Below, piece after piece: positions 1-40,540 of a stretch of DNA of 56,938 nt. Each line of letters starts with the position of its first letter. The first letter of the stretch is position 1. The notes under the pieces are model-generated. The model ran no database searches. It saw only the letters and a program-made list of their open reading frames with translations, and was not told the DNA's origin. The stretch comes from an uncultured virus (IMG/VR IMGVR_UViG_3300036766_001530). Its lineage: Duplodnaviria; Heunggongvirae; Uroviricota; Caudoviricetes. Location: the IMG/VR virus record IMGVR_UViG_3300036766_001530; one strand, given 5' to 3'. Made by a program: the position numbers and the translations under genes.

Positions 1-53
1 ACGCCAACCAGGGGGCGTCCGCGAAAATTCGCTGTTGTTTAGGCGGAACCAAG

Positions 54-287
54 ATGCGCATCACAAGAGATGATCTCCAACCCAAGAAGTCCAAGACGGT
101 TACGATTCGAGTTCAAGCATCCGTCCTGAAGAAGCTCAAGTCAGAAGCTCGTTCCCTCGGAATAGGCCACACGAGCTTGGCTCGGGTGATTCTGGAAAAG
201 TGGGTGGATGGGTTGGCTGCAAGCCGCCCCCTCAACTCTTCACGCGCGTCGTCTAGCGGCCAAGGCCCCTCGTCGACAACGAGGTGA
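54..287 (+). CDS. CopG/BrnA-like ribbon-helix-helix DNA-binding protein
   Basis: KSKTVTIRVQASVLKKLKSEARSLGIGHTSLARVILEKWV fits the RHH/BrnA pattern; the tail overlaps the tRNA at 242. Confidence 0.6.
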   Translation: MRITRDDLQPKKSKTVTIRVQASVLKKLKSEARSLGIGHTSLARVILEKWVDGLAASRPLNSSRASSSGQGPSSTTR

Positions 288-314
288 TCGGCAGTTCGAG
301 TCTGCCCGCGCGTA
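242..314 (+). tRNA. tRNA-Val(GAC), C at position 33
   Basis: Acceptor ACGCGCG/CGCGCGT; anticodon arm CCTCG-tcGACaa-CGAGG; T-arm GGCAG-TTCGAGT-CTGCC. Confidence 0.8.
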
Positions 315-320
315 CTCCGA

Positions 321-367
321 TCTCGTGTAGCTCAACCGGTGCAGAGCATCGTCCCCAAAGACGAAGG
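321..367 (+). pseudogene. Truncated tRNA (5' half only), ending at a hairpin element
   Basis: TAGCTCAACCGGTGCAGAGC D-arm and TCGTC-cccaaa-GACGA arm (6-nt loop); the repeat at 368 replaces the T-arm and 3' acceptor strand. Confidence 0.65.
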
Positions 368-408
368 GTGAGTCGCGGAGCGACGAACTCCGCTCCGGTC
401 CGGATCAA

Positions 409-481
409 ACGAGCGTAGCTCAGCGGCTAGAGCGTCCGCCCCACACGCGGAAAGTCGAGGGTTCAAGTCCCTCCGCTCGTA
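409..481 (+). tRNA. tRNA-Val(CAC), C33
   Basis: ACGAGCG/CGCTCGT acceptor; TCCGC-ccCACac-GCGGA; GAGGG-TTCAAGT-CCCTC. Confidence 0.85.
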
Positions 482-1594
482 CTAGCCCCGCAGCGCCTTC
501 CGCGCCGCCATGCGAGCGCCCATCGTGTCACCGGCCTGGTAGCGAGACAGTCCCTCACGACCTTGATCGGTGATCGTGACCTTCACCAGCCTCGGCTGCC
601 GCTCGCCCCCGAAGCTCGGCTCGTTCAGGAAGTCCCACGTCGCCATGTTCCGACCCTTGAGATCGCAAGCCGTGTAGTAGGTCGACATGTCCACGTCCTG
701 GTAGACGTGCTCGCCACCTTTGTTGACGAGATCCGCGAGCAGCTCGGCCTGCTTCTTCGAGACCGGCTTCGGTGGTGGGAGAGGCTTCGCCGGCTTCGCT
801 CCTCGACGAGCCGTGGGTGGAGGAGGTGGAAGACCCTGGGAGGAAGCGAGCTGACGCCGCACGTAGTCGAAGTAGCTCGGCTTGGTCGCACCACGAATCG
901 TCGTGAACATCATCATGGGCCGCTGATGTTCGAGCCAGGCGAGGAGTGTTGCTCCGGGGCGATTGGCCCCAGCGGGCGCCGGCAACGATCGCAAGAGCTT
1001 CTGCGTCGCCTCCGAGTAGTACCAGGCTCGGCCCTCTGCCACCTGCGAGACCTGCGGCTCGGGTAGACGGCCGAGCTTCTCTGGCGAGTAGATCCAGGTT
1101 GCGGTGCGACCACCAAGCACCTTGATGTCACTCTCCAGGCCGGAAATCTGAGTCTTGGTCGCGTGTTTCTTCGTCTCGACCGCCGCTTCCCAGCTCTGGC
1201 AGTAGCCGCTGCCGTACTCGCCCTTCCAGCCCGGGCTGATCGCGATGCTCTTGGTCGGCCGCTTCCCTCCCCACTCCCTCTTTCGAGTCGGATCGGCAAC
1301 GTCGATGTAGAGGGACGTCACACGACCTGCGTTCAGATCCGCGAGGTACTGCCGCTCATTCACGAGCCAGGCTTCGAGCTTGCCCTTCCAGTGCTTCGTG
1401 AACTCGCACGACAGCTCGAACGGTAGGTGCCCTTCTCCAGCGCAACGCCCGACCGTCTCGCCCGTCCCAGGTCGCCGATACCCGTGCAGGACCAGCACCG
1501 GATCTTTCGAGCGAGCTTTCGGCTTGACGATTTGCTGTCGGAGGCAGGCCTGACAGGTGCCCTGGAACCGCTTGTCATCGTCGCTCATGGGCAC
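482..1594 (-). CDS. Hypothetical protein with N-terminal Cys/His motif
   Basis: 370-aa ORF filling the gap between two tRNAs; CQAC...H...C. Confidence 0.75.
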   Translation of the reverse strand: MPMSDDDKRFQGTCQACLRQQIVKPKARSKDPVLVLHGYRRPGTGETVGRCAGEGHLPFELSCEFTKHWKGKLEAWLVNERQYLADLNAGRVTSLYIDVADPTRKREWGGKRPTKSIAISPGWKGEYGSGYCQSWEAAVETKKHATKTQISGLESDIKVLGGRTATWIYSPEKLGRLPEPQVSQVAEGRAWYYSEATQKLLRSLPAPAGANRPGATLLAWLEHQRPMMMFTTIRGATKPSYFDYVRRQLASSQGLPPPPPTARRGAKPAKPLPPPKPVSKKQAELLADLVNKGGEHVYQDVDMSTYYTACDLKGRNMATWDFLNEPSFGGERQPRLVKVTITDQGREGLSRYQAGDTMGARMAARKALRG

Positions 1595-1628
1595 ACGCTA
1601 CCAGAAGTAGAGCCTTGCATCACCACTT

Positions 1629-1708
1629 GGAGCCGTAGGGGAGCCAGGCCGTCCCCGCTGGTCTGTCACACCAGAGATCGCTGGGTTCAAATCCCGCCGG
1701 CTCCGCCA
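1629..1708 (+). tRNA. tRNA-Asp(GTC) with encoded CCA
   Basis: GGAGCCG/CGGCTCC-G-CCA; CTGGT-ctGTCac-ACCAG; TTCAAAT T-loop. Confidence 0.85.
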
Positions 1709-1811
1709 TCGTCAGTCCACTGCCGCCGTCTCGGAGGCCAAGAGTTGGTAGCCTTCCGGGTGCGAAAGCATGAGTCGCGGAGCGACGAATTCCGCTCCGG
1801 TCCGGTCCGAT

Positions 1812-2096
1812 TCATTCCACCGCCGCCGTCTCAGGAACGAGAAGCTGATAGCCCTCCGGGTGCGAGAGAAGCTCGGGGAACATCTCGGCCAGTCGCAGGC
1901 TCTCACAACGACGAAGCGTCTCTGGCGATCCACCGATCTCGACTTCGTAGGCTTCGCAGTCGTCCGAGCAGGTGCAGGTCCCCGACACGATGCGGACGGC
2001 TTCGGCGTAGCGCCAGGGACCGCGGCCCGTGAGCAGCCGGCCGATTTCCCTGTAGTCGAGGTCCAGACCGAGACGGGGCGGCATTCCGGAAACCAC
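1812..2096 (-). CDS. Small hypothetical protein
   Basis: 94-aa ORF; its 3' end is duplicated at 1712-1770 with mostly synonymous changes, implying coding constraint. Confidence 0.6.
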   Translation of the reverse strand: MVSGMPPRLGLDLDYREIGRLLTGRGPWRYAEAVRIVSGTCTCSDDCEAYEVEIGGSPETLRRCESLRLAEMFPELLSHPEGYQLLVPETAAVE

Positions 2097-2162
2097 CTCT
2101 TCCTATATGATACCCCAGCGTGAGTCGCGGAGCGACGAACTCCGATCTGGGTTCCGGTTCCG

Positions 2163-2235
2163 GCTGGCGTAGCTCAATCGGCAGAGCGGTTGCTCTATAA
2201 GCGAAGGGTTCCCGGTTCGATCCCGGGCGCCAGTA
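2163..2235 (+). tRNA. tRNA-Ile(TAT), C33
   Basis: GCTGGCG/CGCCAGT acceptor; imperfect stem GTTGC-tcTATaa-GCGAA; CCCGG-TTCGATC-CCGGG. Confidence 0.75.
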
Positions 2236-2244
2236 CGAATTCAC

Positions 2245-2329
2245 GCGGTCGTGGTGAAACTGGAAACCACGCAGGCTTGAGGTGCCTGTGGGCGAAAGCC
2301 CGTTGGGGGTTCGAGTCCCCCCGACCGCA
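2245..2329 (+). tRNA. tRNA-Leu(GAG)
   Basis: CAGGC-ttGAGgt-GCCTG; long variable arm GGGC-GAAA-GCCC. Confidence 0.9.
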
Positions 2330-2335
2330 CAAGAA

Positions 2336-2596
2336 CTAGCGCCTGTCGATATGCCTCTCGACAAGCTTCATCATCTCCATCATGTTCGCCGAGCGCTTCC
2401 CGAGCACGAGCGCGAGCTTGCTGTCGGCGACGATAACGCGACCGTCGCTGGGCGACTGGAGCTTGTGCCGCTTGATGTAGCCCCAGAGCTTCTTGACGAT
2501 CTGGGCGCTCGGCAGCGGCTTGTGACCAACGATCGCCCCGAGGGTGGAGTCGACGCGGACCGGACGTGAAAGGGCGCGAGAGAGCTTTCGTGGCAT
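2336..2596 (-). CDS. SWIB/MDM2 domain protein
   Basis: LGAIVG...QIVKKLWGYIKRHKLQSPSDGRVIVADSKLALVLG...MMEMMKLVERHI is a typical stand-alone SWIB; start placed at MPRKL. Confidence 0.85.
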   Translation of the reverse strand: MPRKLSRALSRPVRVDSTLGAIVGHKPLPSAQIVKKLWGYIKRHKLQSPSDGRVIVADSKLALVLGKRSANMMEMMKLVERHIDRR

Positions 2597-2753
2597 GGGC
2601 AGGAACCTCCTGCCGGGCAACGTAGCACGAGACTCCGGCACTCCGAAAAAGACGAAGGGCCCGGGTGAACTACCCCGAGCCCCTCGCGGTCCGCCAGCCG
2701 CAGACCAGCCGGCTTCCAGAAGTATCAGGACTAGAGATTCAAGTCAATACCCT

Positions 2754-2838
2754 GCGAGGGTGGCGGAATTGGCAGATCGCGCATCGTTCAGACCGATGTG
2801 GGGGCAACCCCGTGGAGGTTCGAGTCCTCTCCCTCGCA
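2754..2838 (+). tRNA. tRNA-Leu(CAG)
   Basis: CATCG-ttCAGac-CGATG; variable arm GGGG-CAA-CCCC; repeat element begins at 2841. Confidence 0.9.
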
Positions 2839-2883
2839 CAGTGAGCCGCGAAGCGGCGAACTCCGAGTCCGATCCGGACTCAA

Positions 2884-2958
2884 GCCGGCGTGGCCCAACC
2901 TGGTAGAGGCCTCGTCTCAAAAACGAGTCATGTGCGAGTTCGAGTCTCGCCGCCGGTA
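2884..2958 (+). tRNA. Atypical tRNA, anticodon CAA (Leu) on a short-variable-arm body
   Basis: GCCGGCG/CGCCGGT; CTCGT-ctCAAaa-ACGAG; GCGAG-TTCGAGT-CTCGC; no long variable arm. Confidence 0.7.
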
Positions 2959-3046
2959 CTGAAATCCAGATCAGAAAACCCAGATCAGAAAAACCCGGAG
3001 TGCGCCGCTTCGCGGCTTACCCTGTAGAATGAAAGGAGGTGACGCC

Positions 3047-3610
3047 GTGACTGCTCTTGCTCTCGAAGGAAGAAGGGTTCTCGTAGTAGATGCCGGTCTC
3101 CAACCGGTCAACATCGTCTCGTGGCGGAGGGCCATGTGTCTCCTCTTCTCGGGGGAAGACGACGACGAGCCGCCCAAGGTCATCGAGTGGAGCGAGGACG
3201 GTGCCGTCATCACGAGCCCATCGCGCAACTACCCGCTGCCCTCCGTCATCCAGCTCGGCAGCATGCTGGCGCCATGGCGGCGCCGGCCAAAGTTCTGTCG
3301 CAAGAACGTCCTCGTCGGCCGTGACCGGTGCGTCTGTCAATACTGCGGACGCCAGTTCTCGACCGAAGGGCTGACGCTCGATCACGTCACGCCGCGAGCG
3401 CAGGGAGGAACCACCACCTGGGAGAACACGGTCGCAGCCTGCGTGCCGTGCAACCAGAAGAAGGCCAACCGAACGCCCGTGCAGGCCGGCATGCGCCTCG
3501 TGCGCAAGCCCGTCCGCCCGCGCGACATCATGGAGTCCGAGGTCCGGCAGAACCCCAGGGGCGCTCCGCCCGAGTGGAAGAACTACTGGACCGGCCGGCT
3601 GCTCCCGTAG
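3047..3610 (+). CDS. HNH endonuclease (McrA-like)
   Basis: RDRCVCQYCG...TLDHVTPRAQGG...WENTVAACVPCNQKK; RBS AAAGGAGGT precedes GTG 3047. Confidence 0.92.
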   Translation: MTALALEGRRVLVVDAGLQPVNIVSWRRAMCLLFSGEDDDEPPKVIEWSEDGAVITSPSRNYPLPSVIQLGSMLAPWRRRPKFCRKNVLVGRDRCVCQYCGRQFSTEGLTLDHVTPRAQGGTTTWENTVAACVPCNQKKANRTPVQAGMRLVRKPVRPRDIMESEVRQNPRGAPPEWKNYWTGRLLP

Positions 3611-3668
3611 GTGAGCCGCGAAGCGGCGAACTCCGCTCTGCTCCGTTCCGTGCTCGCCTCCGGGGAAT

Positions 3669-4136
3669 TTACTTCCCCGGAGCGTTGGCGGCGAGCACCT
3701 TCAGACTTTCCACCAACTCGGCCACCATCGCAGCTCCAGCTTCCGCCTCAGCCTGCCGCAAAGCCCTCTCGGTCTCGACAAGCTTGTGATCCAGATCCCT
3801 CATCTTGAGGCGGATCTCATCCTTGGCCTTCTCGTCTCGCGCACGAACCACATCCAGCAACAGGCCCATGTACGAGCTGGCCACCCCCTCGTAGAGACGT
3901 GCCCGGTTGTAGTACCGACATGCAGCCGTGGCAAAGAGTCGTCCGACAGCAAGCTGCTTTTCCAGAGCCAGCATGAACTCGCGGTTGTCCTGCGCGCTCT
4001 CTCGCCGAAACCTCTCCCATTTCTTCTCCCTCTCGCGAGCCGTCCGATCGATGAACAGAGACAAGCGAAACTTGTCGAGCCAGAACAGAAACGAAAGAGC
4101 AAGGAGAAAGCAGACACCGATCACCGTCAGAGGCAT
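3669..4136 (-). CDS. Membrane-anchored coiled-coil hypothetical protein
   Basis: N-terminal hydrophobic helix followed by charged helical sequence. Confidence 0.6.
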   Translation of the reverse strand: MPLTVIGVCFLLALSFLFWLDKFRLSLFIDRTAREREKKWERFRRESAQDNREFMLALEKQLAVGRLFATAACRYYNRARLYEGVASSYMGLLLDVVRARDEKAKDEIRLKMRDLDHKLVETERALRQAEAEAGAAMVAELVESLKVLAANAPGK

Positions 4137-4153
4137 GGTCCATAAATCTTACC

Positions 4154-4226
4154 GCCCTCGTAGCTCAGTGGATAGAGCGCTGATCTCCGACATCAGAGGC
4201 CGTGAGTCCGAGTCTCACCGAGGGCA
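4154..4226 (+). tRNA. tRNA-Arg(CCG)
   Basis: GCCCTCG/CGAGGGC; CTGAT-ctCCGac-ATCAG; variant T-loop TCCGAGT. Confidence 0.85.
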
Positions 4227-4239
4227 CAGTTAGTTTTCA

Positions 4240-4312
4240 GGGCCCGTAGCTCATCTGGAAGAGCGCTCGCCCCGCAAGCGAGAGGCGGAAGGTTCAAGTC
4301 CTTTCGGGTCCA
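4240..4312 (+). tRNA. tRNA-Ala(CGC), C33
   Basis: G3:U70 Ala determinant; CTCGC-ccCGCaa-GCGAG. Confidence 0.9.
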
Positions 4313-4313
4313 C

Positions 4314-4388
4314 GCCGGTGTAGATCAGCGGTAGATTGCGTCCTTGGTAAGGACGAGGTCGCGAGTTCAATCCTCGCCGCCGGCTCCA
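4314..4388 (+). tRNA. tRNA-Thr(GGT) with encoded CCA
   Basis: CGTCC-ttGGTaa-GGACG; GCGAG-TTCAATC-CTCGC. Confidence 0.9.
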
Positions 4389-4389
4389 T

Positions 4390-4463
4390 GCGCTCGTAGC
4401 TCAGACGGACAGAGCGGCGGTTCCCTAAACCGCAGGTCGACCGTTCGATTCGGTCCGAGCGCA
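4390..4463 (+). tRNA. tRNA-Arg(CCT), C33
   Basis: GCGCTCG/CGAGCGC; GCGGT-tcCCTaa-ACCGC; A20 in the D-loop. Confidence 0.85.
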
Positions 4464-4661
4464 CGTGAGCCGCGAAAGTGAGTCGCGAAGCGGCGAACTC
4501 CGAGTCCGATCCGGTTTCTCCGACGACGTCTTCTATTACCTTGTCTATCCCAACTTGCGCCCATGCTGTAAACGCGGCATGGTGAGCCGCGAAGCGGCGA
4601 ACTCCTGATCCGGTCCGGTCCGGTTTAACCCCGTTCCTTGCCCCGGCTCGTCCAAGCCTCC

Positions 4662-4690
4662 TTGCAGTCATGCTGTAAACGCGGCATGAT
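4662..4690 (+). promoter_or_regulatory. Possible sigma70-like promoter
   Basis: TTGCAG-17 bp-CATGAT just upstream of 4697; a truncated sister copy lies at 4555-4581. Confidence 0.35.
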
Positions 4691-4696
4691 CCAACC

Positions 4697-4957
4697 GTGC
4701 AGGTCAAGCCAGCCTACGATCTGACCGGCCAGGTCTTCGGCCGCCTCACGGCCATCAAGGTCGTGAAGAAGGATCGCGCTCGGCGCTACTACTGGCTCTG
4801 CCGCTGCCGCTGCAACCCCAACCGGACGACTGTCGTCAGGGCCGACTACCTCAAGGGTGGAGTCATCGAAAGCTGCGGATGTCTGCGCGTGGATCTGCGC
4901 CGCAGCGGCATGACGATCCGAGCGGCTCTGCGACGCCTTGCGCCTCGCGCCGCCTAA
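4697..4957 (+). CDS. Stand-alone N-terminal module of phage AP2/HNH-associated proteins
   Basis: DLTGQVFGRLT...WLCRCRC...L..G...SCGCL motif; no nuclease or AP2 domain follows. Confidence 0.75.
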   Translation: MQVKPAYDLTGQVFGRLTAIKVVKKDRARRYYWLCRCRCNPNRTTVVRADYLKGGVIESCGCLRVDLRRSGMTIRAALRRLAPRAA

Positions 4958-6234
4958 GGCTTGTCGTCCTTATGACCCCAGGCTTCCTTGAGAGTGCCGA
5001 GAAGCCACCCGAAGGAAGCGACACCACCGCCGCTTCCTCCATCGCCACCTCCGCTCCTCTTCGCAGCCCTATCTGCCCGGCGCTGAGCGCGAAGAGCCTG
5101 ACGATCTGCCTCTACCTTTTTCCCCAGATCGTTGTTCTTGAGAGCATCCTGATTCGCCTTCTCGGACTCACGGTCCATGTCCTTCCACAACCTTCGCATC
5201 CCGCGCTCGGCCTGCTCTTGCTCGCGCAACCCTTCGCCGTTCGCGTACTTCTCGTATTTCTCGACCTCGCGCTGATCGATCTCCTTCTGAACCAGAGCCT
5301 TCTCGGCAAGCCGCCGAGTCGTTGTGCCGCTGGGGGAATCGAGCCAGGACTTCACTGCACGCGAGGCCTCGTCTCGCTTCATGCCGAAGGCCAAGATCGC
5401 GGACGACTCGATCGAGGCTACGTCGCCAACCAACGACCGCTCGGTGAGAGACGGTCGAAACGAAACGAGATCGTCAACCGCATCCATAGCTCGACGTCTT
5501 GACCAGCTTGCGAACGCGAGCTTCGCACGCGCGACGTCTCCACCGGTGTGTGGCGTGAGCAGCTCGACGACATCACCTCTCGTTTCCAGAGCTTCTTGCC
5601 AGAGTCCCCGGACAAGTTCGTCTTCGACACCCTTCGGTTGGACGCTCGCCTCGACACCCTTCGGTTGGACGCTCGCCTCGACACCCTTCGGCTGAACGCT
5701 CGCCTCGACACCCTTCGGCTGAACACTCGCCTCGACACCCTTCGGTCGAGGGATGATCTCCGGCTCGACATCGACGTCAATGACAAGCGGCTCCAACCTG
5801 GTGGGAGCCGGCTCGCCCTCCACCACCGCGGCTGGTCCCTTGTGATCTCGCTCTTTCCCCCGCTCGATACCCAGCTTCACCACCTCGGGCTCGTACCACA
5901 ACGAGCTGCGAGTGCCCTGCATCGCAGAACCGAAGTAACCGAGGTTGGCCAAGTACACGACTCGCGTGAGCGGCAGCGAATAGTTCTCGGCAATGTCGGG
6001 CCTGGTCAACCAGCTCTCGCAGCCATCTGGAGGTATCGGCTTGTGACTCGTCACATTAGAAAGGATACCCCAACCCTCCCGATCGCTACTCTGGAATGTC
6101 ACACTGGAATTCGATCTCCCTGGGCTCCTTTTGATCACTAGGATTACCGACGGAGATTCGACGTTATGAAACGACGTCGGCGCCCAACTATAGAATTCGA
6201 TCTTTCTAACATGGTTGGCACCAGGCTGCTTCAC
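4954..6234 (-). CDS. Hypothetical protein with PKGVEASVQ tandem repeats
   Basis: 426-aa ORF; the internal 27-bp repeat is in frame. Confidence 0.6.
   Translation of the reverse strand: MKQPGANHVRKIEFYSWAPTSFHNVESPSVILVIKRSPGRSNSSVTFQSSDREGWGILSNVTSHKPIPPDGCESWLTRPDIAENYSLPLTRVVYLANLGYFGSAMQGTRSSLWYEPEVVKLGIERGKERDHKGPAAVVEGEPAPTRLEPLVIDVDVEPEIIPRPKGVEASVQPKGVEASVQPKGVEASVQPKGVEASVQPKGVEDELVRGLWQEALETRGDVVELLTPHTGGDVARAKLAFASWSRRRAMDAVDDLVSFRPSLTERSLVGDVASIESSAILAFGMKRDEASRAVKSWLDSPSGTTTRRLAEKALVQKEIDQREVEKYEKYANGEGLREQEQAERGMRRLWKDMDRESEKANQDALKNNDLGKKVEADRQALRAQRRADRAAKRSGGGDGGSGGGVASFGWLLGTLKEAWGHKDDKP
5624..5745. repeat. 27-bp tandem repeat, about 4.5 copies
   Basis: TCGACACCCTTCGGTTGGACGCTCGCC units. 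Confidence 0.95.
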
Positions 6235-6285
6235 CGTCGGTGCTGGCTAGCGCGCGACATCCTGGCCTCGCGCCCATGGCCCCGC

Positions 6286-6346
6286 CCGCTCTTGAGAAGT
6301 GGCCCACCCACTCTTGAGAAGTGGCCCCTCCGCTTTCGAGAAGTGC
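6286..6346. promoter_or_regulatory. Three 22-bp-period quasi-palindromic repeats (operator/iteron-like)
   Basis: CC(G/A)CTCTTGAGAAGTGGC-like units at 6286, 6308 and 6330 in the divergent intergenic region. Confidence 0.55.
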
Positions 6347-6605
6347 TGCGTTCCAGATTTGGAACGATTTGTCTCTCCACAGGACAGACCCTCCGAATCA
6401 CTCGGCTATTCCTTGCTCCTAGTATCGACTCGAATCCTCAATGGTTGCGCCGCCTCGTCGAGAATCGACATGACATGGCCTCTGGCCATCTTCACGAAAG
6501 GTCCGAAATTACGCAGAATTTGGGGGTCAACCAAACCGCCTCGAATGTGTCGAGGCAACCACTTCGTTTCCGGGGTTCGGGACCACCGGAAGGAGACACT
6601 GAACC

Positions 6606-7067
6606 ATGGCTCTGCATCTGACCCAGTCCGACATCATCCGCTTCAAGCACCAGGCGGAGGCGATGAAGAATCGTGCAAAGGCTGCCTTGGAGAAGGCAGA
6701 CGGCGCGGTCGACACGCTCATCCGGTCCTCCGAGGTCGCTGTCTCGGCGTTCGCCTTCGGCGTTCTCCAGGGCAAGTTCAAGAAGCAGGGCGGTGTCACG
6801 CTGCTCGGCATCCCCGTCGATCTGCTCTCGGGCGTGGGCTTCCACGTCCTCGGGCTGGCCGGCGTCGGCGGCCGGAACGCGCATCACCTCCACGCCTTCG
6901 GCGACGGTGCCCTGGCGTCCTACTTCACCACGCTCGGCCGGGGAGTCGGCGCGAGCTGGGGTGGCGGCGTCGCGGGAGCCATCGAGGGCGACCGTGCGGT
7001 GACGGGCGGTGGGAGCCTGGCCGACGAGGAGCTGGCGCGCATGGTGAGCGCGGCGGCCCGCAAGTAG
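6606..7067 (+). CDS. Putative virion membrane protein
   Basis: RBS AAGGAG; Gly/Ala-rich hydrophobic helices; first gene of the + strand block. Confidence 0.75.
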   Translation: MALHLTQSDIIRFKHQAEAMKNRAKAALEKADGAVDTLIRSSEVAVSAFAFGVLQGKFKKQGGVTLLGIPVDLLSGVGFHVLGLAGVGGRNAHHLHAFGDGALASYFTTLGRGVGASWGGGVAGAIEGDRAVTGGGSLADEELARMVSAAARK

Positions 7068-7269
7068 GTGAGTCGCGGAGCGACGAACTCCGGTCCGGAC
7101 TCCGGTCCGAACCAGGGAACCAAGCTCACAAGCTCCTCAAGCAAAAGCAGCCGGCGACCAGGCCGGTAGCAAGAGTCCGAAACCCGAACCCGAAACCCGC
7201 TCCCGACAATCAACCCCACCAATTCCGGTGGGCACGAGACCCCGGGAGTTGAACGAAAGAAGGATCAAC

Positions 7270-7896
7270 ATGCGTACGGACATCGTGGGAGCCTCCGAGA
7301 TCGTCGGCGACGACGTGCTCGACGGCGACATCTTCGGAGACGTCGAAGGCGACGCCTTCGTGGGCGACGAATCGGCCGGGGACATCGACGCGCTCATGGG
7401 CGCGTGGTACAACCCCCTGTCGTGGGGCCGCACCAAGGGCCCCTCGGCCCAGCAGCGGGCCATGGCCCTCCAGCAGCAGAGGGCGGCGGCACAGTCCGCG
7501 CTGGCTCGTCGTCGCGTGTCGGAGGGTTCGATCCTCCGCGACGTGGCGCCGACCAAGAGCCGGGAGTACATCCTCGGCTTCGACGTGACGTCCATCCCGG
7601 GCGGCGCGAGCGCGAACATCACGAAGAGGCCCCAGGTCATCTTCCGGCCGGAGCGGGTGATCATCCCCTCGACGGTCGGTGTGAACTTCCAGGTCCTCGA
7701 CGTGAAGGTCGGAAAGAACTCGCAGTTCACCGCGAGCGGCTCCGTCCCCGCCGTCGTCTTCGCCGAGACGTCGTTCGGCGTCCGCCTGAAGATGGACACC
7801 TGCCAGGTGTCGATGGACGTGACCCTGAGCGTCCAGAACACCAACGCGAACGCGCAGAACTTCACCGCCGCCATCATCGGCCCGGCGGTCGAGTAG
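7270..7896 (+). CDS. Candidate major capsid protein (single jelly-roll-like) with acidic propeptide
   Basis: Strong codon bias; acidic N-terminus with GDAFVG; C-terminal ~110 aa of alternating beta-strands (ILGFD...RPQVIFRPERVII...FQVLDVKVG...VTLSVQN...FTAAIIG). The fold is inferred. Confidence 0.55.
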   Translation: MRTDIVGASEIVGDDVLDGDIFGDVEGDAFVGDESAGDIDALMGAWYNPLSWGRTKGPSAQQRAMALQQQRAAAQSALARRRVSEGSILRDVAPTKSREYILGFDVTSIPGGASANITKRPQVIFRPERVIIPSTVGVNFQVLDVKVGKNSQFTASGSVPAVVFAETSFGVRLKMDTCQVSMDVTLSVQNTNANAQNFTAAIIGPAVE

Positions 7897-8243
7897 GTGA
7901 GTCGCGAAGCGACGAACTCCGATCTGGACTCCGGGTTTCTTCCGGGTTCCTGACCAGAGCCGGGTGGTGAGCCCGGATCGTCGCTTCGCACCCGCTTTCT
8001 GTTTTTCGCCGTAGCGAGACCCGCTCGGCCCCGGTGGTGAACCGGGCAAATCGTGGGGGTCGTCCCCGGCGGCGCGTTTCCTGAAAGTCCCAGGAACGCG
8101 CCGTCCGGGGGCTACTTTCGGAAGGGGATGGCTCCCTCCGCAACTGTTCGATTCGGTTGCTTCCGACCAAAACTAAATAGTCCCCGAAGCAGACCGTCCC
8201 CACGGCCGTTCGCTCCGGGAGTCCTTTCGAGAAAGGAAACGCA

Positions 8244-8573
8244 GTGGCAGCCAAAGACGTACAACAGCGACCGCTGGACCTCTCGTCCCCCGGCGCCACT
8301 GGCTCGCCCACCGCCCCGACCGACGCGACGCACGTCGATCCGGCCACGCTGCCTCAGCCAGACGGCGCGGGCGCTCCGGGCAACAGCCTCCTCGCCGCCC
8401 CGGCCAACCACGTCCACCCGGGCGCCACGGCCTCGAACTACTTGCAGGCCGATGTCTTTACCAATGACGCGGTCAACTGGTCAACGCTGGTGACCGTGAA
8501 CATCAACACATCGGGAGGTACGACTCTCGCTGCTCAGGCTCACGCCTCCGTCTCAAACCTGGGGAATCCCTGA
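8244..8573 (+). CDS. Virion beta-rich protein, N-terminal part
   Basis: RBS AAAGGA + GTG; AAPANHVHP fibre-type motif; stop overlaps the next ATG. Confidence 0.65.
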   Translation: MAAKDVQQRPLDLSSPGATGSPTAPTDATHVDPATLPQPDGAGAPGNSLLAAPANHVHPGATASNYLQADVFTNDAVNWSTLVTVNINTSGGTTLAAQAHASVSNLGNP

Positions 8574-8827
8574 TGGCTTTCTTCGCCAAAACCCAGTTCC
8601 GTCTCGTCATCGACGGAGTCCCGGTGCCGGGCTCAAATGTGGAGACGTCCTTCGATCTCCTCAACGACACCGAGGTCATCGCCATCATCGGCCAGAAAGT
8701 CGCCGTTCTCTCTGGAGCCCACGTCGTCCAACTCCAATGGAAATCGGCCGATGGCAACACGGCGGTATGTCGTCCAATCCTCGCACCACTGAATGAATCG
8801 GCATCGCTCTTTGTCTCGGAGGTGTGA
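8573..8827 (+). CDS. Virion beta-rich protein, C-terminal part
   Basis: QFRLVIDG...GAHVVQLQWK...SLFVSEV looks like the second half of a beta-sandwich. Confidence 0.65.
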   Translation: MAFFAKTQFRLVIDGVPVPGSNVETSFDLLNDTEVIAIIGQKVAVLSGAHVVQLQWKSADGNTAVCRPILAPLNESASLFVSEV

Positions 8828-8921
8828 TTGCCGCCATGCCGATGCCCATGATCCAGTTCGGTGAGCTGCGAAGCAGCGAACTCCGCTCCGGCTCCGGTCC
8901 GAACCATCAGGAGATCACCTG

Positions 8922-10328
8922 ATGCCGATGCCCACGATCCAGTTCAAGCTCAAGCTCTTCCGGGGCGACTGGGACCAGGCACGTTCGCAGGTCGCTCTGC
9001 TCTGGCTCATGGAGGCGCTCGTCCGCCAGAACCAGAGCCACATCCGGCAGTTCGTCTCGCTCGCCAAGCGCGGCATCATCAAGGAGCCGTACCCGCGCCT
9101 CTATCGCGCAGGTGTCCACTACGAGCGCGAGCCGCCCGGCCAGGAAGTCTGGCCGGATGTGCCGACCATCCTGGAGACCAAGGACGGCGAGTTCTCCGGC
9201 CCCTGGGGCGACTGCTTGCCCGTCTCGACGCTCGTCGCCAAGTACAACGACAAGGGCGACGCCCAGATGTTCCCCTTCGGCTCGCTCAAGATCGGCGATG
9301 TCATCGTCGAAGGAGGACCGTCTCAGATCGCTCCAACCGGGCGCACAATGGTGCTGGAATTCGCCGAGACTGGCGAAAAAGAAATCATCGCTTTCCGCCT
9401 GGCCCACCCCTACGGAACTCCAAGAACACTCCGCTGCTCACCAGAGCACAAACTCTTCCTCCTCGAAGGTGAAAAGGAAGTCAGAGCCAAGAATGTAAGG
9501 CCCGGCGATCAGCTCCTCGGAGGAAGCAACGGCAAGTACGGGGGGCTCAAAGTCATCGAGATCACCACTCCGGGGAAAGAACGCTGCGCCGACATCAAGA
9601 CGGCCAGTGGTCGCTTCTGGCTTCCGGAATCCGACGCCATCGTCCACAACTGCGAAGACCTTGCATGCTGGCGCACGGCCGAGCTGCGCGAGCTGGGCAA
9701 CATCAAGGCCAAGCCATTCGCCAAGTGGCGCTTCGGCAAGAGCGGCAACTACCACTACCACGCGCTCACGCTTCTGCCCGACGGCCGACTCGAAGATCCG
9801 AGCCTGACGCTCGGCATGGGCCGCGAGGCCTTCTTCGCCAAGCACGACATCGTGGATCGCTACAAGAAGGGCGAGCTGAAGCCCCTCGTCATGTTCGCCA
9901 AGCTGCCCGACGTCATCGTCGTCGATCCGGAAAAGCCGACCGGCTACTCGGGCGGCAAGGCCGACTACTACCAGCAGGGCGTCTCGGGAACCGGTGCCCG
10001 CCCCGACGAGCTGGCCGCCTGGGGATACGACCACAACGATGTCCGAGGTGCCGACATGGCGGCCCTACGAGACATGACCTCCGGCATGAGCCGCGTCGAC
10101 CACATGGGCTCGTTCTCGGCCATGACCCAGCTCCCCGACATCTCGACCGCCGACATCGTCATGGGCGGAGCGCGCCACAAGATCGTCTCCAAGCACGAGC
10201 GCGAAGTCGACGACGACGGCAATACGCTCGACGCCATGATCGGCTGGAACGGCAAGACCTTCGTGCCACGCTCGGACGCCGAGGCCATGCGCCGCCTCAT
10301 GGGCTACGGGGCCGGAGGAGGTCGCTGA
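8922..10328 (+). CDS. Transglutaminase-like cysteine protease (putative maturation protease), intein-containing
   Basis: After splicing it reads WGD-CEDLACWRTAEL...YHALTLLPDGRLEDPS, a Cys-His-Asp triad in transglutaminase-like context. Confidence 0.75.
   Translation: MPMPTIQFKLKLFRGDWDQARSQVALLWLMEALVRQNQSHIRQFVSLAKRGIIKEPYPRLYRAGVHYEREPPGQEVWPDVPTILETKDGEFSGPWGDCLPVSTLVAKYNDKGDAQMFPFGSLKIGDVIVEGGPSQIAPTGRTMVLEFAETGEKEIIAFRLAHPYGTPRTLRCSPEHKLFLLEGEKEVRAKNVRPGDQLLGGSNGKYGGLKVIEITTPGKERCADIKTASGRFWLPESDAIVHNCEDLACWRTAELRELGNIKAKPFAKWRFGKSGNYHYHALTLLPDGRLEDPSLTLGMGREAFFAKHDIVDRYKKGELKPLVMFAKLPDVIVVDPEKPTGYSGGKADYYQQGVSGTGARPDELAAWGYDHNDVRGADMAALRDMTSGMSRVDHMGSFSAMTQLPDISTADIVMGGARHKIVSKHEREVDDDGNTLDAMIGWNGKTFVPRSDAEAMRRLMGYGAGGGR
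9213..9650 (+). mobile_element. Mini-intein, 146 aa, no homing endonuclease
   Basis: Starts CLPVSTLV; block B LRCSPEHKLF; VRAKNVRPGDQL; ends IVHN followed by extein Cys. Confidence 0.92.
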
Positions 10329-10380
10329 TGAAGATCGCCACTCAATACGGACCGGAGCGGAATTCGTCGCTCCGCGACTC

Positions 10381-10935
10381 ATGATGCCACTCATCGCCGT
10401 ACCATTCATCGGTCTCGCTATCGCCATCCTTGCGGGACTCGGTGCCGGGTTCATGACCAAGCACCGGAAAGAAGAGATCACGACCGACGAGCAGCGCCTC
10501 TGGGCCGCCATCGTGAAGGCCCAGCAGACGGGCAAGCCGGACGACTTCATCAGCGCCGCCAACCTCGCCCGCATCCTCGGCAAGCCGAAGACTGCCGACG
10601 AGCTGACCGCGCAGGCAACGGCCGCCGCCCAACGATCGATGCTCGCCGCTCGGGCCGGCGCGCTCGCCAGAAACGTCAAGCCCAGTTCCAAGAAGACCGG
10701 CGTCAACGGCGAGGGCCGCCCGACCATGGCCTACCTCTACCAGCATCCCAACGACGCCTATGCTGTCCGGATGGCAATCGGACCCACCTGGGCCGAGCGC
10801 AAGGAAATGGGCATCTTCGACAACGTCGATCTTGCGAGAAACGTGGCCGAGGGCAACGCCTGGCGCCTGGCCTGGTACGAGCCCAAGGACCTCAAGGTCG
10901 TTCTCGCTCTCGCTCAACAGAAAAGGATCGCCTGA
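10381..10935 (+). CDS. N-terminally anchored membrane protein
   Basis: Hydrophobic N-terminus; AANLARILGKPKTADEL motif. Confidence 0.75.
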   Translation: MMPLIAVPFIGLAIAILAGLGAGFMTKHRKEEITTDEQRLWAAIVKAQQTGKPDDFISAANLARILGKPKTADELTAQATAAAQRSMLAARAGALARNVKPSSKKTGVNGEGRPTMAYLYQHPNDAYAVRMAIGPTWAERKEMGIFDNVDLARNVAEGNAWRLAWYEPKDLKVVLALAQQKRIA

Positions 10936-10936
10936 C

Positions 10937-11452
10937 ATGCTCCCCATCTTCGGAATGATTCTCGCCGGCATCATCGGCTTCGCCATCGCCCAGAGCAAGA
11001 AGACCGATGAGAAGAAGCAACTCGCGGTACCAGAGCCACAGAGGGCTCTGCCTCCGATCGAACCATCTCCGACCCAGATGGACAGGATGGAGCAATCTAT
11101 CAACCGGCAAATCACTCAACAACTCGCAGCCCATGACACCGCCTACCCCTTGATGCTGGCGGCCATCAAGCATGCCGAGGCCACCAAGGACCCTCGCGAC
11201 TACCGTGCTGCCTCGATCTTGGCCGTCAAGGCTGGCAGACCAAAGTCGGCGAAGACCCTTGCAAGCATCGCCGATGAGCGGGCCCGCGAGATCGCAAGCA
11301 AGGCGAAGAAGGTCGGCAAGGTCGCGAAGGTGACTGGAGATCCTCGCGCCCTCGACGTCTTTGCGGGCCTGGTCGAGCAAATCGACCAGACCGAGCTGGC
11401 GCGCCGCGCCCGCCGCGCCGCCAAGGCCATCCGCAATGGGGAGGTGGGCTGA
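10937..11452 (+). CDS. N-terminally anchored membrane protein
   Basis: MLPIFGMILAGIIGFAIA anchor; RBS AAGGA; AGRPKSAKTL motif. Confidence 0.75.
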   Translation: MLPIFGMILAGIIGFAIAQSKKTDEKKQLAVPEPQRALPPIEPSPTQMDRMEQSINRQITQQLAAHDTAYPLMLAAIKHAEATKDPRDYRAASILAVKAGRPKSAKTLASIADERAREIASKAKKVGKVAKVTGDPRALDVFAGLVEQIDQTELARRARRAAKAIRNGEVG

Positions 11453-11619
11453 TGCTCCAGGTAGTCCTTCCCCTCGCAATCGTCCTACTCATCCTGCGCG
11501 CCACCCGCGGGATGACGGACACGATCAAGAAGTACGAACGTCGCGGCACCATGGCCGGTGGTGACCCGGAGGAGAAGAAGCTCTCCTCGTTCTCCGGCTA
11601 CGCCAAGGGCCTGGAATGA
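11452..11619 (+). CDS. Small membrane protein, 55 aa (not in the ORF track)
   Basis: MLQVVLPLAIVLLILRA...SGYAKGLE; start and stop both overlap neighbouring genes. Confidence 0.7.
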   Translation: MLQVVLPLAIVLLILRATRGMTDTIKKYERRGTMAGGDPEEKKLSSFSGYAKGLE

Positions 11620-12434
11620 CCACAGCTTCCCCCAGCACCTCCCCTCTCGCCAACGTCATCGTCAAGGTCCTCGCCGACCCCAAGACGACCGAGAAGGATC
11701 TGCTCGCCGTCGCCTCTCTCGCCGAGAAGAGCGGCCAGGCCAAGACAGCCGAGGCCCTGCGCGATCGTGCGCGCAAGCTGATGATCGAACAAGCTGCCGC
11801 CGCAGCCGCCACCGCGATCCCCAAGATCGGCGAATCCACCACTTCCGAATCTGAAACTGAGCCGGCCTCAGAACCGGCCTCGCCGGCCTCTGAACCAGCC
11901 TCGCCGGCCTCTGAACCGGAGCGGAATTCGCCGCTTCGCGGCTCATTCGTCGGCTTCCCCTCGCCCTGGAAGGACGTGCCTCCTCCGGCCTGGACCGCCT
12001 TCGTCAAGGCGATGGGCGACAAGAAGGCAAAGGCCGTCGATGATCGCTACCGCCTCGGCATCTTCGGCATCGGCGCCCGCCGACTGGTCGACCTCGGGCT
12101 CATGAAGAACCCGAAGAAGGGGGAGTACAAGGGAGCCAAGGGCGTCTGGGTAGCCGAGTGGCTGCCACCGCACAGCGAGGAGAAGTTCCTTGGCTCGCCC
12201 GAGGCCCAGTACCGCGCTTTCGTGGCGAGCATGATCGCCTACCGCCGCGCCATCAACCAGCAGTTCGCGGGCAAGCCCGCGCCGGCTCCCGTCGGCGGCA
12301 AGCGCGTGAGCCTCTCGGGACTCCTGGCGGTGGCGCACCACGCCGGCATGGGCGGACTCGGCAAGTGGCTCTCTGACGAGCGGCGCGTGCCAGCGACCAC
12401 CGAGGCCTTCACCAAGGCGACCGAAATCTTCTAG
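11616..12434 (+). CDS. Hypothetical virion protein
   Basis: Coupled ORF; SGQAKTAEAL motif; PASE repeats and an in-frame reversed hairpin element. Confidence 0.75.
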   Translation: MTTASPSTSPLANVIVKVLADPKTTEKDLLAVASLAEKSGQAKTAEALRDRARKLMIEQAAAAAATAIPKIGESTTSESETEPASEPASPASEPASPASEPERNSPLRGSFVGFPSPWKDVPPPAWTAFVKAMGDKKAKAVDDRYRLGIFGIGARRLVDLGLMKNPKKGEYKGAKGVWVAEWLPPHSEEKFLGSPEAQYRAFVASMIAYRRAINQQFAGKPAPAPVGGKRVSLSGLLAVAHHAGMGGLGKWLSDERRVPATTEAFTKATEIF

Positions 12435-12497
12435 GGTGAGCCGCGAAGCGGCGAACTCCGATCTGGTCCGAACAAAAATCTGAAAGGGACTCGACCA

Positions 12498-12622
12498 ATG
12501 GGCAAAGAACTTGTGACGGCCGGCGATGCTTTCGTCGGGGCAGATCCGTCGGTGAGGACAGCATCATCGGAGCATCGCTCGGCGCCATCTGCGGCACGAG
12601 CTGCTACCGCAAGGGACTCTGA
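12498..12622 (+). pseudogene. Frameshifted remnant consisting only of family tags
   Basis: MGKELVTAGDAFVG in one frame and GASLGAICGTSCYRKGL* in another; length 125 nt. Confidence 0.65.
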
Positions 12623-12640
12623 GGAAAGGACACGAAGACC

Positions 12641-13282
12641 ATGGGCAAAGAACTTGTAACGGCCGGCGACATCGCGAGTGGTGAGGTCGGCTGGGACCTC
12701 CTTCATCTCTTCCGCCGCTCCGACACCAACACCAAGCTCACGACCGGTCCCGAGATCGCGCGAGCCCTCACGGCTTCCGAGATCGCGGACTGGATCGAGG
12801 GACGTCGTGGCAACATCGCCCACAAGCAGTCGGGCGTGGCCGCGCTGCGCTCGATGCAGGAGCGCGCGAACGCGGGCGATCAGGATGCCGCAATCGCCGC
12901 CGGCATGATCGAGCACTTCCGCCAGAACCCGGTCCGCCCTCCCGCGTACATCTACCGCAACGCCTTCCGTCGCGCTTCGCTCGCCGTCGCCCAGGCGAAA
13001 ACCCAGAACGAGGCCGCCTACAACTACGCCAAGTTCGTGAAGAGCTACAACGAGGCCGTCGCCGGCAAGGACGTCACGCTCGCCAACCTCTACGCCGAGC
13101 GACTCGCCCAGATCCGGTCCCAGTTCGGCGACAACATCGGCCAGCTCGCCGTGCAGCGGGGATTCATCTCCCCAACCGACACCAACACCTTCGCGGCCAA
13201 CGTCTCCGCCGCCAGCAAGCCCGGCGTCGCCGGCATGTTCGGCGCCCTCTGCGGCGCTGACACCTACTCGAAGGGTCTCTGA
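12641..13282 (+). CDS. Core-like protein with C-terminal tag
   Basis: Ends GMFGALCGADTYSKGL. Confidence 0.8.
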   Translation: MGKELVTAGDIASGEVGWDLLHLFRRSDTNTKLTTGPEIARALTASEIADWIEGRRGNIAHKQSGVAALRSMQERANAGDQDAAIAAGMIEHFRQNPVRPPAYIYRNAFRRASLAVAQAKTQNEAAYNYAKFVKSYNEAVAGKDVTLANLYAERLAQIRSQFGDNIGQLAVQRGFISPTDTNTFAANVSAASKPGVAGMFGALCGADTYSKGL

Positions 13283-13746
13283 TGGCCTACGGACGGGACG
13301 AACTCGAAGCGATGAGCGAAGGAGGCATCGAAGGCGATGCCTTCGTCGGCTCCTTCTGGGGAGGGGTCAAACACATGGCCCACGCCCCCAGGCTCCTCGT
13401 CGAGACGATGGTCGCCCCACTCGACTGGGCTGGTCGGAAGATCGGACTGCCGCACGCCAAGAAAGCCCGCTACTTCGATCACTACCAGTTCCCGAACGAA
13501 GCACAGCTCAACCAGGCCATCGAGAAGCTGCGAGGAGCCGGGCTCGTCGCTCACCGGTGGTACCGCTTCGACCGCGGCCCACAGCGACCGACCCTGACCA
13601 CCAACGCCACCATGAAGCAGATCATCGCCCTCAACATCGGGGGCTACCGAGTGCCCTGGCAGAAGGGGCGCACCGACACCACGCGCGCAGAGGCCCTGAA
13701 AGAGCCGACTGGCGTGCGTGGTAGCACGTACACGAAAGGACTCTGA
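13282..13746 (+). CDS. Core-like protein, GDAFVG family
   Basis: MAYGRDEL...EGDAFVG-SFWGGVK; ends TYTKGL. Confidence 0.8.
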   Translation: MAYGRDELEAMSEGGIEGDAFVGSFWGGVKHMAHAPRLLVETMVAPLDWAGRKIGLPHAKKARYFDHYQFPNEAQLNQAIEKLRGAGLVAHRWYRFDRGPQRPTLTTNATMKQIIALNIGGYRVPWQKGRTDTTRAEALKEPTGVRGSTYTKGL

Positions 13747-13749
13747 GAC

Positions 13750-15021: not shown

Positions 15022-15125
15022 TCCCACATGGCCTTCGATAAGGATGAAATGGTCCTCGACTCCTCGGGCGACGGTGAGCCGCGAAGCGGCGAACTCTGCT
15101 CTGGTCCGAACAAAAAGGAAGTCTG

Positions 15126-16498: not shown

Positions 16499-16881
16499 TG
16501 GCCTTCGACAAAGACGAAGAAGCCCTCCGCCTCAGCGGTGATGAGATCGGAAGCGTCTGGGGCAAGATCAAGAGCGGGACTCGGAGTGTCGGCCGCGGCG
16601 TGCTCCAGGCTGGCCGCGACCTGCGCGACGCGAGCATCTTTTCCCAGCGCTACGAGTATCTCTCACCGACCTACCGCGACTCGGTGAAGACCCTCAGCCG
16701 CAAGCTCCGTTACATCAACGAGAACCTCCCTGGAGCTATCGAGAACGCAAAAAAGCATCCGGCCCGAGGAACCACTCGCTACGCGAAGATGCTCACGAGC
16801 GATCGCAGGCTCGCCATCGTGTTGCTCGCCAGGAAGGGCGTCAACGTCTCTGGTGACGATCCCATGGAAGGGGAGTTCTAA
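16498..16881 (+). CDS. Core-like protein, MAFDKDE family
   Basis: MAFDKDEEALRLSGDEIG-SVWGKIK; TGATG coupling. Confidence 0.8.
   Translation: MAFDKDEEALRLSGDEIGSVWGKIKSGTRSVGRGVLQAGRDLRDASIFSQRYEYLSPTYRDSVKTLSRKLRYINENLPGAIENAKKHPARGTTRYAKMLTSDRRLAIVLLARKGVNVSGDDPMEGEF

Positions 16882-40536: not shown

Positions 40537-40540
<4 letters not shown>
40175..40540 (+). CDS. MSKFE tag family protein
   Basis: MSKFEDSFQKALAAA. Confidence 0.8.

Follow-up and report, generated by a model that had tools for sequence, protein, structure and literature searches.

Phage genomes are mosaics, and the joints between their modules are usually invisible because selection keeps only the clean ones. The boundary sequences of lambdoid phages provide an analogy for the repeated element described here. 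Two systems come closest to it. The promoter-early stem-loop (PeSL) cassettes of T4-type phages (PMC2839356; PMC4122927) are described as the combination of a sigma-70-type promoter and a terminator, with homologous exchange between copies; they were proposed to drive modular shuffling, and the formation of mini-circles by recombination between copies has been reported (PMC2839356). DNA of the sequence GCGNAGC is described as forming an exceptionally stable, nuclease-resistant mini-hairpin, which has been noted at the phage G4 and ssiA priming sites and at the N4 early promoter (PMC13037366). The heptamer GCGGAGC and its complement are reported in the N4 single-strand promoter and in palindrome I of the Streptomyces telomere (PMC5449611), and in N4 an extruded ssDNA hairpin promoter is in use (PMC13434306).

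The DNA analyzed here (hereafter the window) is a stretch of 56,938 bases with 64% G+C, whose proteins are placed by the database on one contig of 118,938 bases. The window looks like part of an uncultured tailed-phage-like contig of ~119 kb, judged by its gene content: tail-like and collagen/BclA-like ORFs, an SLT transglycosylase, a 2185-aa protein with peptidoglycan-binding repeats, a SWIB-domain ORF, and an array of 11 tRNA genes at 242-4464 (ARAGORN). Most of the remaining ORFs have no family, and beyond 6.6 kb almost every gene lies on the plus strand. Ten tRNAs, and nothing else, matched Rfam at gathering score. Two HNH-type ORFs, 3029-3610 (Pfam HNH) and 4697-4957 (PHROG 374), are the sole nucleases recognized in the window, and both adjoin copies of the element. 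The 63 ORFs scanned in the 57-kb window yielded no family of recombinases, transposases, reverse transcriptases or primases; a RAYT or IS200-type Y1 enzyme that might act as a cognate transposase was likewise absent from these ORFs, and neither an integrase nor an RNA polymerase, including a virion RNA polymerase, was found within the window. Tandem paralogue families are abundant, as seen in five gene starts of the type MAFDKDE... and six of the type MSKFEDSFQ....

Two diverged gene ends on either side of an element

Close to the left end of the window, an intact small gene and a second version of its last codons are separated by one copy of the element. The features of this locus are:

1629-1708, plus strand: tRNA-Asp (ARAGORN; Rfam tRNA match 1629-1705), 3 nt left of copy A
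1712-1768, minus strand: copy A, 18 codons plus TGA, a truncated remnant that corresponds to the 3' end of the small gene, from an allele or a paralogue
1769-1811, plus strand: element copy of the subtype CATGAG...GAATTCCG, with a GGA loop (covariance-model match 1770-1811, 54.8 bits)
1812-2096, minus strand: intact small gene, which contains copy B (1812-1868); GC3 0.75
2120-2161, plus strand: second element copy, in the same orientation as the first and 23 nt past the start of the small gene

A sequence-only reading of this DNA had described silently diverged copies of one gene end around the element. These copies are real, and their homology covers 1712-1768 and 1812-1868, rather than extending up to 1770 and 1870. 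The two stretches are direct repeats with a period of exactly 100 nt, and 44/57 positions are identical (77%). On the minus strand each encodes 18 codons followed by a stop, LSHPEGYQLLASETAAVD in 1712-1768 and ...LSHPEGYQLLVPETAAVE at the C-terminus of the ORF 1812-2096, with agreement at 15/18 residues. The outer end of the homology is exactly the stop codon. The inner end of copy A abuts the 5' edge of the element at 1769-1811, whose hairpin lies at ~1770-1790, and the stop codon of the gene 1812-2096 abuts its 3' end. Local alignment of the two flanks scored 12-15 z units above shuffled flanks, and a tblastn search with the product of the small gene gave a match at 1771-1715 with 79% identity over 19 aa. 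Since the small gene lies between two element copies of the same orientation (1769 and 2120), the interval 1769-2119 constitutes one element-to-element unit. The element at 2120-2161 is followed by a tRNA-Ile, whose start is 43 nt from the element's first base.

Read from GTG, the product of the small gene has 94 aa; the database protein P0001 corresponds to a start at ATG and 90 aa. It has no Pfam or PHROG match, all its matches in the protein atlas were below 0.9, and its AlphaFold model (pLDDT 68) gave no Foldseek match at E <= 0.001. Two database homologues, with 77% and 68% identity, share an ...AEMFPEL.(S/C)HPEGY motif; their tails differ, and neither tail matches copy A.

The substitutions between the two gene ends are not random with respect to codon position, as the sequence-only reading had anticipated. 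Over the 54 coding bases we counted 13 differences, 10 of them at third positions and 11 of them transitions, and only 3 residues are changed. The Nei-Gojobori counts were 9.0 synonymous differences over 13.8 sites and 4.0 non-synonymous differences over 40.2 sites (pS 0.65, pN 0.10), which corresponds to a dN/dS of ~0.07, a statistic that rests on just 13 differences. When 13 changes were placed randomly, three or fewer residue changes were obtained in 0.0001-0.0009 of the runs. A fairer null lets one copy be dead and decay freely while the other takes silent changes only; under this null P was 0.003-0.011 for the residue changes and 0.006-0.011 for at least 10 third-position changes. A dead duplicate decaying in place at 1712/1812 is therefore rejected at the ~1% level, and the argument that a dead duplicate would not diverge mostly at silent sites held when simulated. 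The mostly silent divergence, together with the low probability of the dead-copy null, suggests that most of the divergence arose while both copies were working gene ends.

The element between the two copies has not diverged in step with them. Its core, 1769-1804, is identical over 36 nt to that of the minus-strand copy at 10341-10383, 8.6 kb away. An undiverged element copy between flanks that are 77% alike indicates that the flanks either predate the element copy by far or originated elsewhere. It is plausible that the two gene ends derive from different viral strains; an older paralogue or a later allele replacement would give the same pattern.

The element family and its hairpin

The element is a hairpin of ~42 bases. 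Of its 26 copies in the window, 4 are on the minus strand and the remaining 22 on the plus strand. Its 18-nt core gave 24 matches with up to 3 mismatches, against 0.31 expected. A covariance model was built from the core matches and searched with filters off: all copies but one were recovered at E <= 4.5e-10 (25/26), the exception being a degenerate copy with 26 bits, and the best match outside the family had 15 bits. The conserved ~36-42 nt read (G)GTGAG-YCGCG-RAG-CGRCG-AAYTCCG and are followed by an A/T-poor, (TCCGG)n-like tail. The hairpin consists of a 2-bp outer stem, a tandem G-A internal loop, a 5-bp stem and a GAA or GGA triloop. With the structure.((..(((((...)))))..)). 132/133 cells are paired, and compensatory double changes occur at 4/7 pairs (G-C/A-T, T-A/C-G, T-A/C-G and C-G/T-A). 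None of 500 shuffles reached this covariation, and slid registers also fell far below it. We conclude that the hairpin is kept by selection through compensatory changes.

Between the outer and the inner stem two G-A oppositions are formed, with GA facing GA in 24/26 copies. The centre of the hairpin is GCGAAGC or GCGGAGC in 24/26 copies, the other two having GCGGCGC and GCAGAGC; this centre is the GCGNAGC mini-hairpin DNA motif, a 3-nt GNA loop on a short G-C-rich stem. By nearest-neighbour DNA folding the element is unremarkable (z from +0.6 to -3.3). A single internal hairpin is present and no terminal inverted repeats are visible. At gathering score no Rfam family matched the element. In a consensus scan of the 17 element copies within 1-20000, no sigma-70-like promoter was detected, and no T-run terminator was found on the element's own strand over the same interval, there being no T-run behind the hairpin. 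Terminator-like calls at elements were confined to the opposite strand and to two copies, the one at 18122 and the degenerate one on the minus strand at 2979-3020, where the call is in the tail.

The element is placed exactly between functional units: after stop codons, after tRNAs, and 41-43 nt before tRNAs. The TAG stop of a frame of 154-289 codons ends 0-1 nt before four copies (3611, 7068, 7897 and 12436), a tRNA ends 1 nt before the copy at 2841, and three copies (368, 2120 and 2841) have a tRNA start 41-43 nt downstream of their position 1. Three further copies, at 18122, 34560 and 41138, are seemingly in frame inside long ORFs. A 12-nt half element that ends in the loop is located at 4465-4476, directly before the full copy at 4478.

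The element was then sought in other collections by exact pattern. In IMG/VR a 23-mer gave 0 matches and a 20-mer gave 2 identical single matches; GTDB genomes gave 4 single matches, and JGI metagenomes gave 3, which were duplicates of two of the GTDB genome matches. All these single matches are without the element tail; their number is about the chance level in GC-rich DNA, and they point to no relative. A protein-guided search of IMG/VR with the 94-aa and 423-aa proteins returned nothing. The searches of IMG/VR, JGI metagenomes, GTDB genomes and GenBank phages yielded no element-bearing genome. When GenBank phages were compared with 1-8000, matches were obtained at the tRNAs only, and tblastn with the 468-aa protein gave no match among them.

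Direct repeats at the 5' edge of the element

The architecture of the 1712/1812 locus recurs in the window. We compared 300 nt to the left with 300 nt to the right of each element by local alignment. Among the 25 elements tested, 7 (1770, 4582, 8861, 15074, 17554, 17698 and 55696) carry a flanking direct repeat with a score of at least 19.5 (z >= 11). An eighth, weak scar was found at the element at 34560, with a 16-nt repeat and a z of 3.5; the other 17 testable copies have no flanking repeat. The scars other than 1712/1812 are:

4554-4581 left copy, 4582-4623 element, 4661-4688 right copy, plus strand: scar, 25/28 identical, upstream of the HNH-like ORF 4697-4957
8836-8859 left copy (ATG plus 7 codons), 8861-8902 element, 8922-8945 right copy, plus strand: scar, right copy is the start of the 468-aa gene
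15028-15073 left copy (ATG plus 14 codons), 15074-15115 element, 15126-15171 right copy, plus strand: scar, 46/46 identical, start of the gene 15126-15839 (family D13)
17506-17553 and element 17554-17595, then 17612-17697 and element 17698-17739, plus strand: two successive scars
34544-34559 left copy, 34560-34601 element, 34604-34619 right copy, plus strand: weak scar, element in frame in the ORF 33932-35182
55635-55695 left copy, 55696-55737 element, 55783-55843 right copy, plus strand: scar in non-coding DNA, ~92% identical

In 8/8 scars the gap between the left copy and the first base of the element is 0-1 nt; on the other side, the 42-nt core is followed by the right copy after 0-45 nt. 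As a control, 1500 random positions were treated in the same way: 82 reached the score and 6 did so with an abutting left copy, against 7/25 elements. On its right the joint always coincides with the first base of the element; on its left it falls at no fixed position, some tens of bases into a resident copy of the sequence found to the right of the element. The right copy continues into an intact gene in the six coding scars; at the two successive scars this intact sequence is 17749-17834, within which the 2185-aa ORF begins (17797). The element at 8861-8902 has a stem variant, GCTGC/GCAGC. A reading of 55635-55695 as a tRNA fragment was rejected, there being no tRNA match.

The repeats measure 16-86 nt and the duplicated units 60-148 nt. 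In the order from 1770 to 55696, the identities of the pairs are 44/57, 25/28, 23/24, 46/46, ~47/48, 85/86, 15/16 and ~56/61, a range of 77%-100% in which 1712/1812 is by far the most diverged pair and the other seven lie at 89-100%. Judged by its divergence, the 1712/1812 pair is apparently the oldest such scar. The identity of the other seven pairs is such that no foreign donor is called for. The remnant at 8836-8859 has one non-silent change relative to the start of the live gene, and its variant residue is absent from the N-termini of 16 relatives, out of 120 listed, a result that speaks against a displaced allele at this locus.

In three scars the repeat reaches outward exactly as far as a gene boundary, a stop codon at 1712/1812 and an ATG both at 8836/8922 and at 15028/15126; the sequences beyond this shared boundary are unrelated. 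An outer end on a gene boundary is what is expected for two alleles with different neighbours, and not for a target duplication. At two loci two elements follow each other in a row; their flanks are near-identical (85/86 and 25/28) but the element tails and spacers differ strongly, which indicates that these are not simple tandem duplicates.

The sequence-only reading had proposed that the element marks recombination junctions. Within this genome it does so, with a truncated left copy abutting the 5' edge at 8/26 copies; the chain of inference in that reading thus appears reasonable, and the within-genome evidence for joints is stronger than could be known when it was made. As to mosaicism, the element may generate it, as was suggested there, or may merely sit at the joints.

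Origin of the joint and comparison with described systems

With moderate confidence we favor the reading that the 5' edge of the element is a recurrent DNA joint at which element-led modules are added, leaving behind stumps of the displaced alleles. A module led by the element, and comprising the element, a spacer and the gene or tRNA to its right, would be joined at this edge onto the resident genome, and the other side of the exchange would be resolved by ordinary homologous recombination inside the shared gene. Where the gene was already resident and the joint fell some tens of bases within it, the 5' edge would be left with a short stump of that resident allele beside it. The stretch 1712-1768 would be such a stump, namely the last 18 codons of a displaced variant of the gene 1812-2096, which would have diverged from the incoming variant while both were still functional. 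On that view, a foreign or much older allele fits the silent divergence found beside an element copy with a 36-nt identity elsewhere. The donor may have been another genome. The presence of the same hairpin at reported priming and transcription start sites suggests that a DNA end or a strand switch arises at a fixed distance from the loop, and we infer that an end or switch of this kind, created at the hairpin, could make the joint. The two HNH ORFs are candidate enzymes by position only. That the joints lie within ~100 nt of a gene boundary is accounted for by this reading only through an appeal to selection and to the stability of the repeats.

A stronger form of the proposal seems to us quite unlikely. 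Here the element would be the recognition site of a dedicated system of hairpin-guided cleavage, or of priming and joining; such an integron-like or homing-like cassette machine would act on extruded single-strand mini-hairpins, cutting or starting DNA exactly at the 5' edge, and would move element-led gene and tRNA cassettes between co-infecting genomes, with the stumps as its off-target products.

The repeat-element-repeat architecture at 8/26 copies, the defined left edge and the minimal unit of 41-43 nt are also what a non-autonomous mobile element of the MITE, REP or RPE type would leave if it made long target duplications of variable length. Most pairs are near-identical, like fresh target duplications, and the seemingly in-frame copies inside three long ORFs recall the Rickettsia palindromic elements, of which in-frame copies occur inside genes. 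Only insertions within one duplication length of a gene start or end would then survive, because there the duplicate restores the gene, and the 23%-diverged pair at 1712/1812 would be a fossil duplicate, left when homologous recombination later replaced the intact gene by a diverged allele. Against this stand the repeat lengths of 16-86 nt without visible terminal inverted repeats, the distance from element to right copy, which varies from 0 to 45 nt, and the lack of a transposase among the 63 ORFs; in addition, an outer repeat boundary on a start or stop codon in three cases would be a coincidence for a staggered cut. We know of no prokaryotic element with target duplications so long and variable, and we consider this origin unlikely. 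Less probability attaches, in our judgment, to local replication errors at a very stable hairpin, by strand switching or by the ligation of a nuclease-resistant 5' flap from the element, with no exchange between genomes and with a silent pattern due to chance or mutational bias. The reported nuclease resistance of the mini-hairpin centre and its link to priming sites (PMC13037366) speak for such errors, as do the duplicated units of 60-148 nt with one end always on the hairpin side; the 89-100% identity of 7/8 pairs is explained equally well by local events. They predict a second element upstream of the left copy, however, and this is absent at 1770, 8861, 15074, 34560 and 55696; where there is an upstream element, near-identical flanks contrast with a strongly different tail and spacer. 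At 1712/1812, moreover, the dead-copy null fails at ~1% and the element copy is undiverged.

Two once-functional tandem paralogues in one genome, of which the downstream one lost its body by a deletion that ended at the 5' edge of the element, would make a second strain unnecessary. The genome is rich in tandem paralogue families, and purifying selection on both copies fits paralogues and alleles equally. Yet a tblastn search of the 57-kb window for further paralogues of the 94-aa gene was negative, a replacement accounts better than a deletion for the exact 100-nt period and for an outer boundary at the stop codon beside tRNA-Asp, and the element edge is still required as a joint. We hold this origin to be very unlikely. 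The most improbable, in our view, is a chimera of the assembly, in which two sediment strains were misjoined at the repeated element and copies A and B never stood on one molecule. The window does come from a metagenome contig. When contigs of four sediment runs were aligned to 1-20000, relatives at 80-99% identity were found as short contigs in the same and in other samples, and contig breaks at element copies are seen in the Logan assembly of the probable source run. One Logan contig of that run, however, which is an independent assembly, spans 375-1798 with 0 differences; it crosses the joint between the truncated copy A and the element, so that this joint is confirmed and the stump is real whatever lies to the right. 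Among the matches listed, none bridges the element into 1812 and onward or covers 1712-1870 in another sample. The element, at ~42 nt, is also shorter than a read, and the same architecture is present at eight loci. In a 1427-nt contig of a relative the match ends at 7895, one base before an element; this break is uninformative because it is also a gene end.

If our preferred reading of the 5' edge as a recurrent joint is correct, eight joints in this genome have kept a stump of the displaced sequence, all at the same edge of one conserved hairpin, and this edge gives a directly testable place and polarity for module exchange. Should nicking, priming or strand switching take place at the edge, the stability of the GCGNAGC mini-hairpin would be tied to genome shuffling, and exchange points in uncultured phages would have a sequence marker. 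Should the element be merely a passive repeat, it would still be a new and well-defined structured boundary element in a lineage without cultured relatives. A keyword search of the open-access literature found no description of the element, or of stump-bearing joints at a phage hairpin repeat, and no usable nick consensus was given in the parts of the T5/BF23 nick paper that were available (PMC10644984).

Several families of repeats share single traits with the element. Like the Rickettsia palindromic elements, REP/BIME sequences and MITEs, it is a short, abundant, intergenic hairpin repeat with some in-frame copies; unlike them, it has no terminal inverted repeats, its flanking repeats measure 16-86 nt in place of a fixed short duplication, and the left copy always abuts the element whereas the right copy does not. 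The integron attC sites resemble it in that genes or tRNAs are bounded by a hairpin that looks like a folded single-strand site, in having one crossover edge, and in possible insertion at secondary sites. It differs from them in that no integrase was found in the window, the element precedes its unit, and the hairpin is much shorter than attC. The two diverged copies of a gene 3' end lying close together are reminiscent of the template and variable repeats of a diversity-generating retroelement (DGR), in which differences are confined to adenines of the template and a reverse transcriptase is encoded nearby. This reading was rejected: A stands at 3/13 differences in copy A and at 1/13 in copy B, 11/13 differences are transitions and most are silent, and no reverse transcriptase was found among the 63 ORFs.

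The likeness to the mini-hairpins is closer. The 7-nt centre, GCGAAGC or GCGGAGC, is identical, with a 3-nt GNA loop closed by C-G, and it likewise occurs in a phage; the element shares with these hairpins a strand bias and a conservation that ends sharply at a fixed distance from the loop. The known sites, as far as they are described, number one to a few per genome and have a demonstrated role in priming or transcription, whereas here 26 copies are dispersed. A promoter role of the N4 type would presumably have the plus-strand hairpin drive leftward transcription, against most genes.

With the PeSL cassettes the element shares a repeated intergenic stem-loop motif, co-oriented with the genes and flanking small genes, and direct repeats on both sides of a gene, here at 1769 and 2120, that could excise or insert the unit. 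It differs from them in lacking, in the consensus scan of 17 copies, the promoter-terminator make-up; the two have no sequence similarity, and the words 'duplication' and 'remnant' occur 0 times in the main text of PMC2839356. A further difference is that its joints are one-sided: they lie at the 5' edge and carry stumps of displaced sequence. We rate the present case as repeat-associated module shuffling, as known in phages, in a new form: a one-sided joint with stumps.

A half element, paired units and truncated gene starts

The regions in which the element (the ~42-nt hairpin repeat) lies beside another copy, or beside a duplicated gene start, were as follows:

4465-4476, half element of 12 nt (GTGAGCCGCGAA), its 3' end in the hairpin loop
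47262-47330 and 48100-48170, paralogous gene starts after the elements at 47219 and 48038
8836-8924 and 15028-15128, truncated left gene starts

The half element is placed between a tRNA-Arg, immediately before it, and the full copy at 4478, immediately after it, and the pair looks like an element-into-element joint. The gene starts behind the elements at 47219 and 48038 (MPTHKHSLTCLD... and MAHKHNLSCLD..., respectively) are mutually paralogous, which suggests that element and gene were duplicated or exchanged as one unit.

At both loci the truncated left gene start retains a ribosome-binding site and an ATG of its own. The frame opened there continues across the element as far as a TGA, which shares bases with the intact gene's start codon (TGATG). 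The resulting upstream ORFs, 28-32 codons long, could couple translation. At the 55696 element, a perfect 10-bp hairpin (55617-55652; GTCGCTCTTC...GAAGAGCGAC) is found just past the stop of ORF 54988-55608. Its right-hand copy, beyond the element, is degenerate, so that at this locus function appears to rest with the left copy.

Neighbouring proteins and coding repeats

The following coding features were mapped:

8922-10328, gene of the 468-aa protein
12500-17300 and 39648-43300, tandem paralogue families (repeat families D10-D13, D19 and D20)
7330-7364, 13783-13817, 14572-14606, 20968-21002, 21427-21461, 24733-24767, 25921-25955 and others, GDAFVG motif sites
5624-5758, 27-nt unit in 4-5 tandem copies inside an ORF, coding for PKGVEASVQ on the minus strand
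16051-16176, glycine-rich 9-nt GGCGGTGGC array inside an ORF

Metagenomic relatives of the 468-aa protein number in the hundreds, many of them longer and with an intein domain (PF14890); tblastn revealed none among GenBank phages. The tandem paralogues comprise five ATGGCCTTCGA...-like gene starts (MAFDKDE...), six more that encode MSKFEDSFQ..., and six ...CYRKGL*-like gene ends, in which the stop overlaps the next start. The coding motif GGCGACGCCTTCGTCGG (GDAFVG; families D5, D6, D14 and D15) is repeated across several large ORFs, and may represent a common peptide signal, e.g., a processing site.

The element core elsewhere and the element in open frames

The 23-nt core (GAGCCGCGAAGCGGCGAACTCCG) was found once each, at position 2001 or 2501 of the locus, in outside loci L001/L007 and L003/L005/L006, which are unrelated MAG and metagenome contigs representing two distinct conserved contexts. 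Other small hairpins surround the core there, and its presence is probably due to chance or to convergent use of the mini-hairpin.

Three element copies in the window lie within long open frames:

18122-18163, 34560-34601 and 41138-41179

The frame that reads through them is E(S/P)RS(D/G)E(L/F)RSG, with 119/2076, 277/206 and 416/84 open codons upstream/downstream. These copies may be translated as in-frame inserts, as Rickettsia palindromic elements are.
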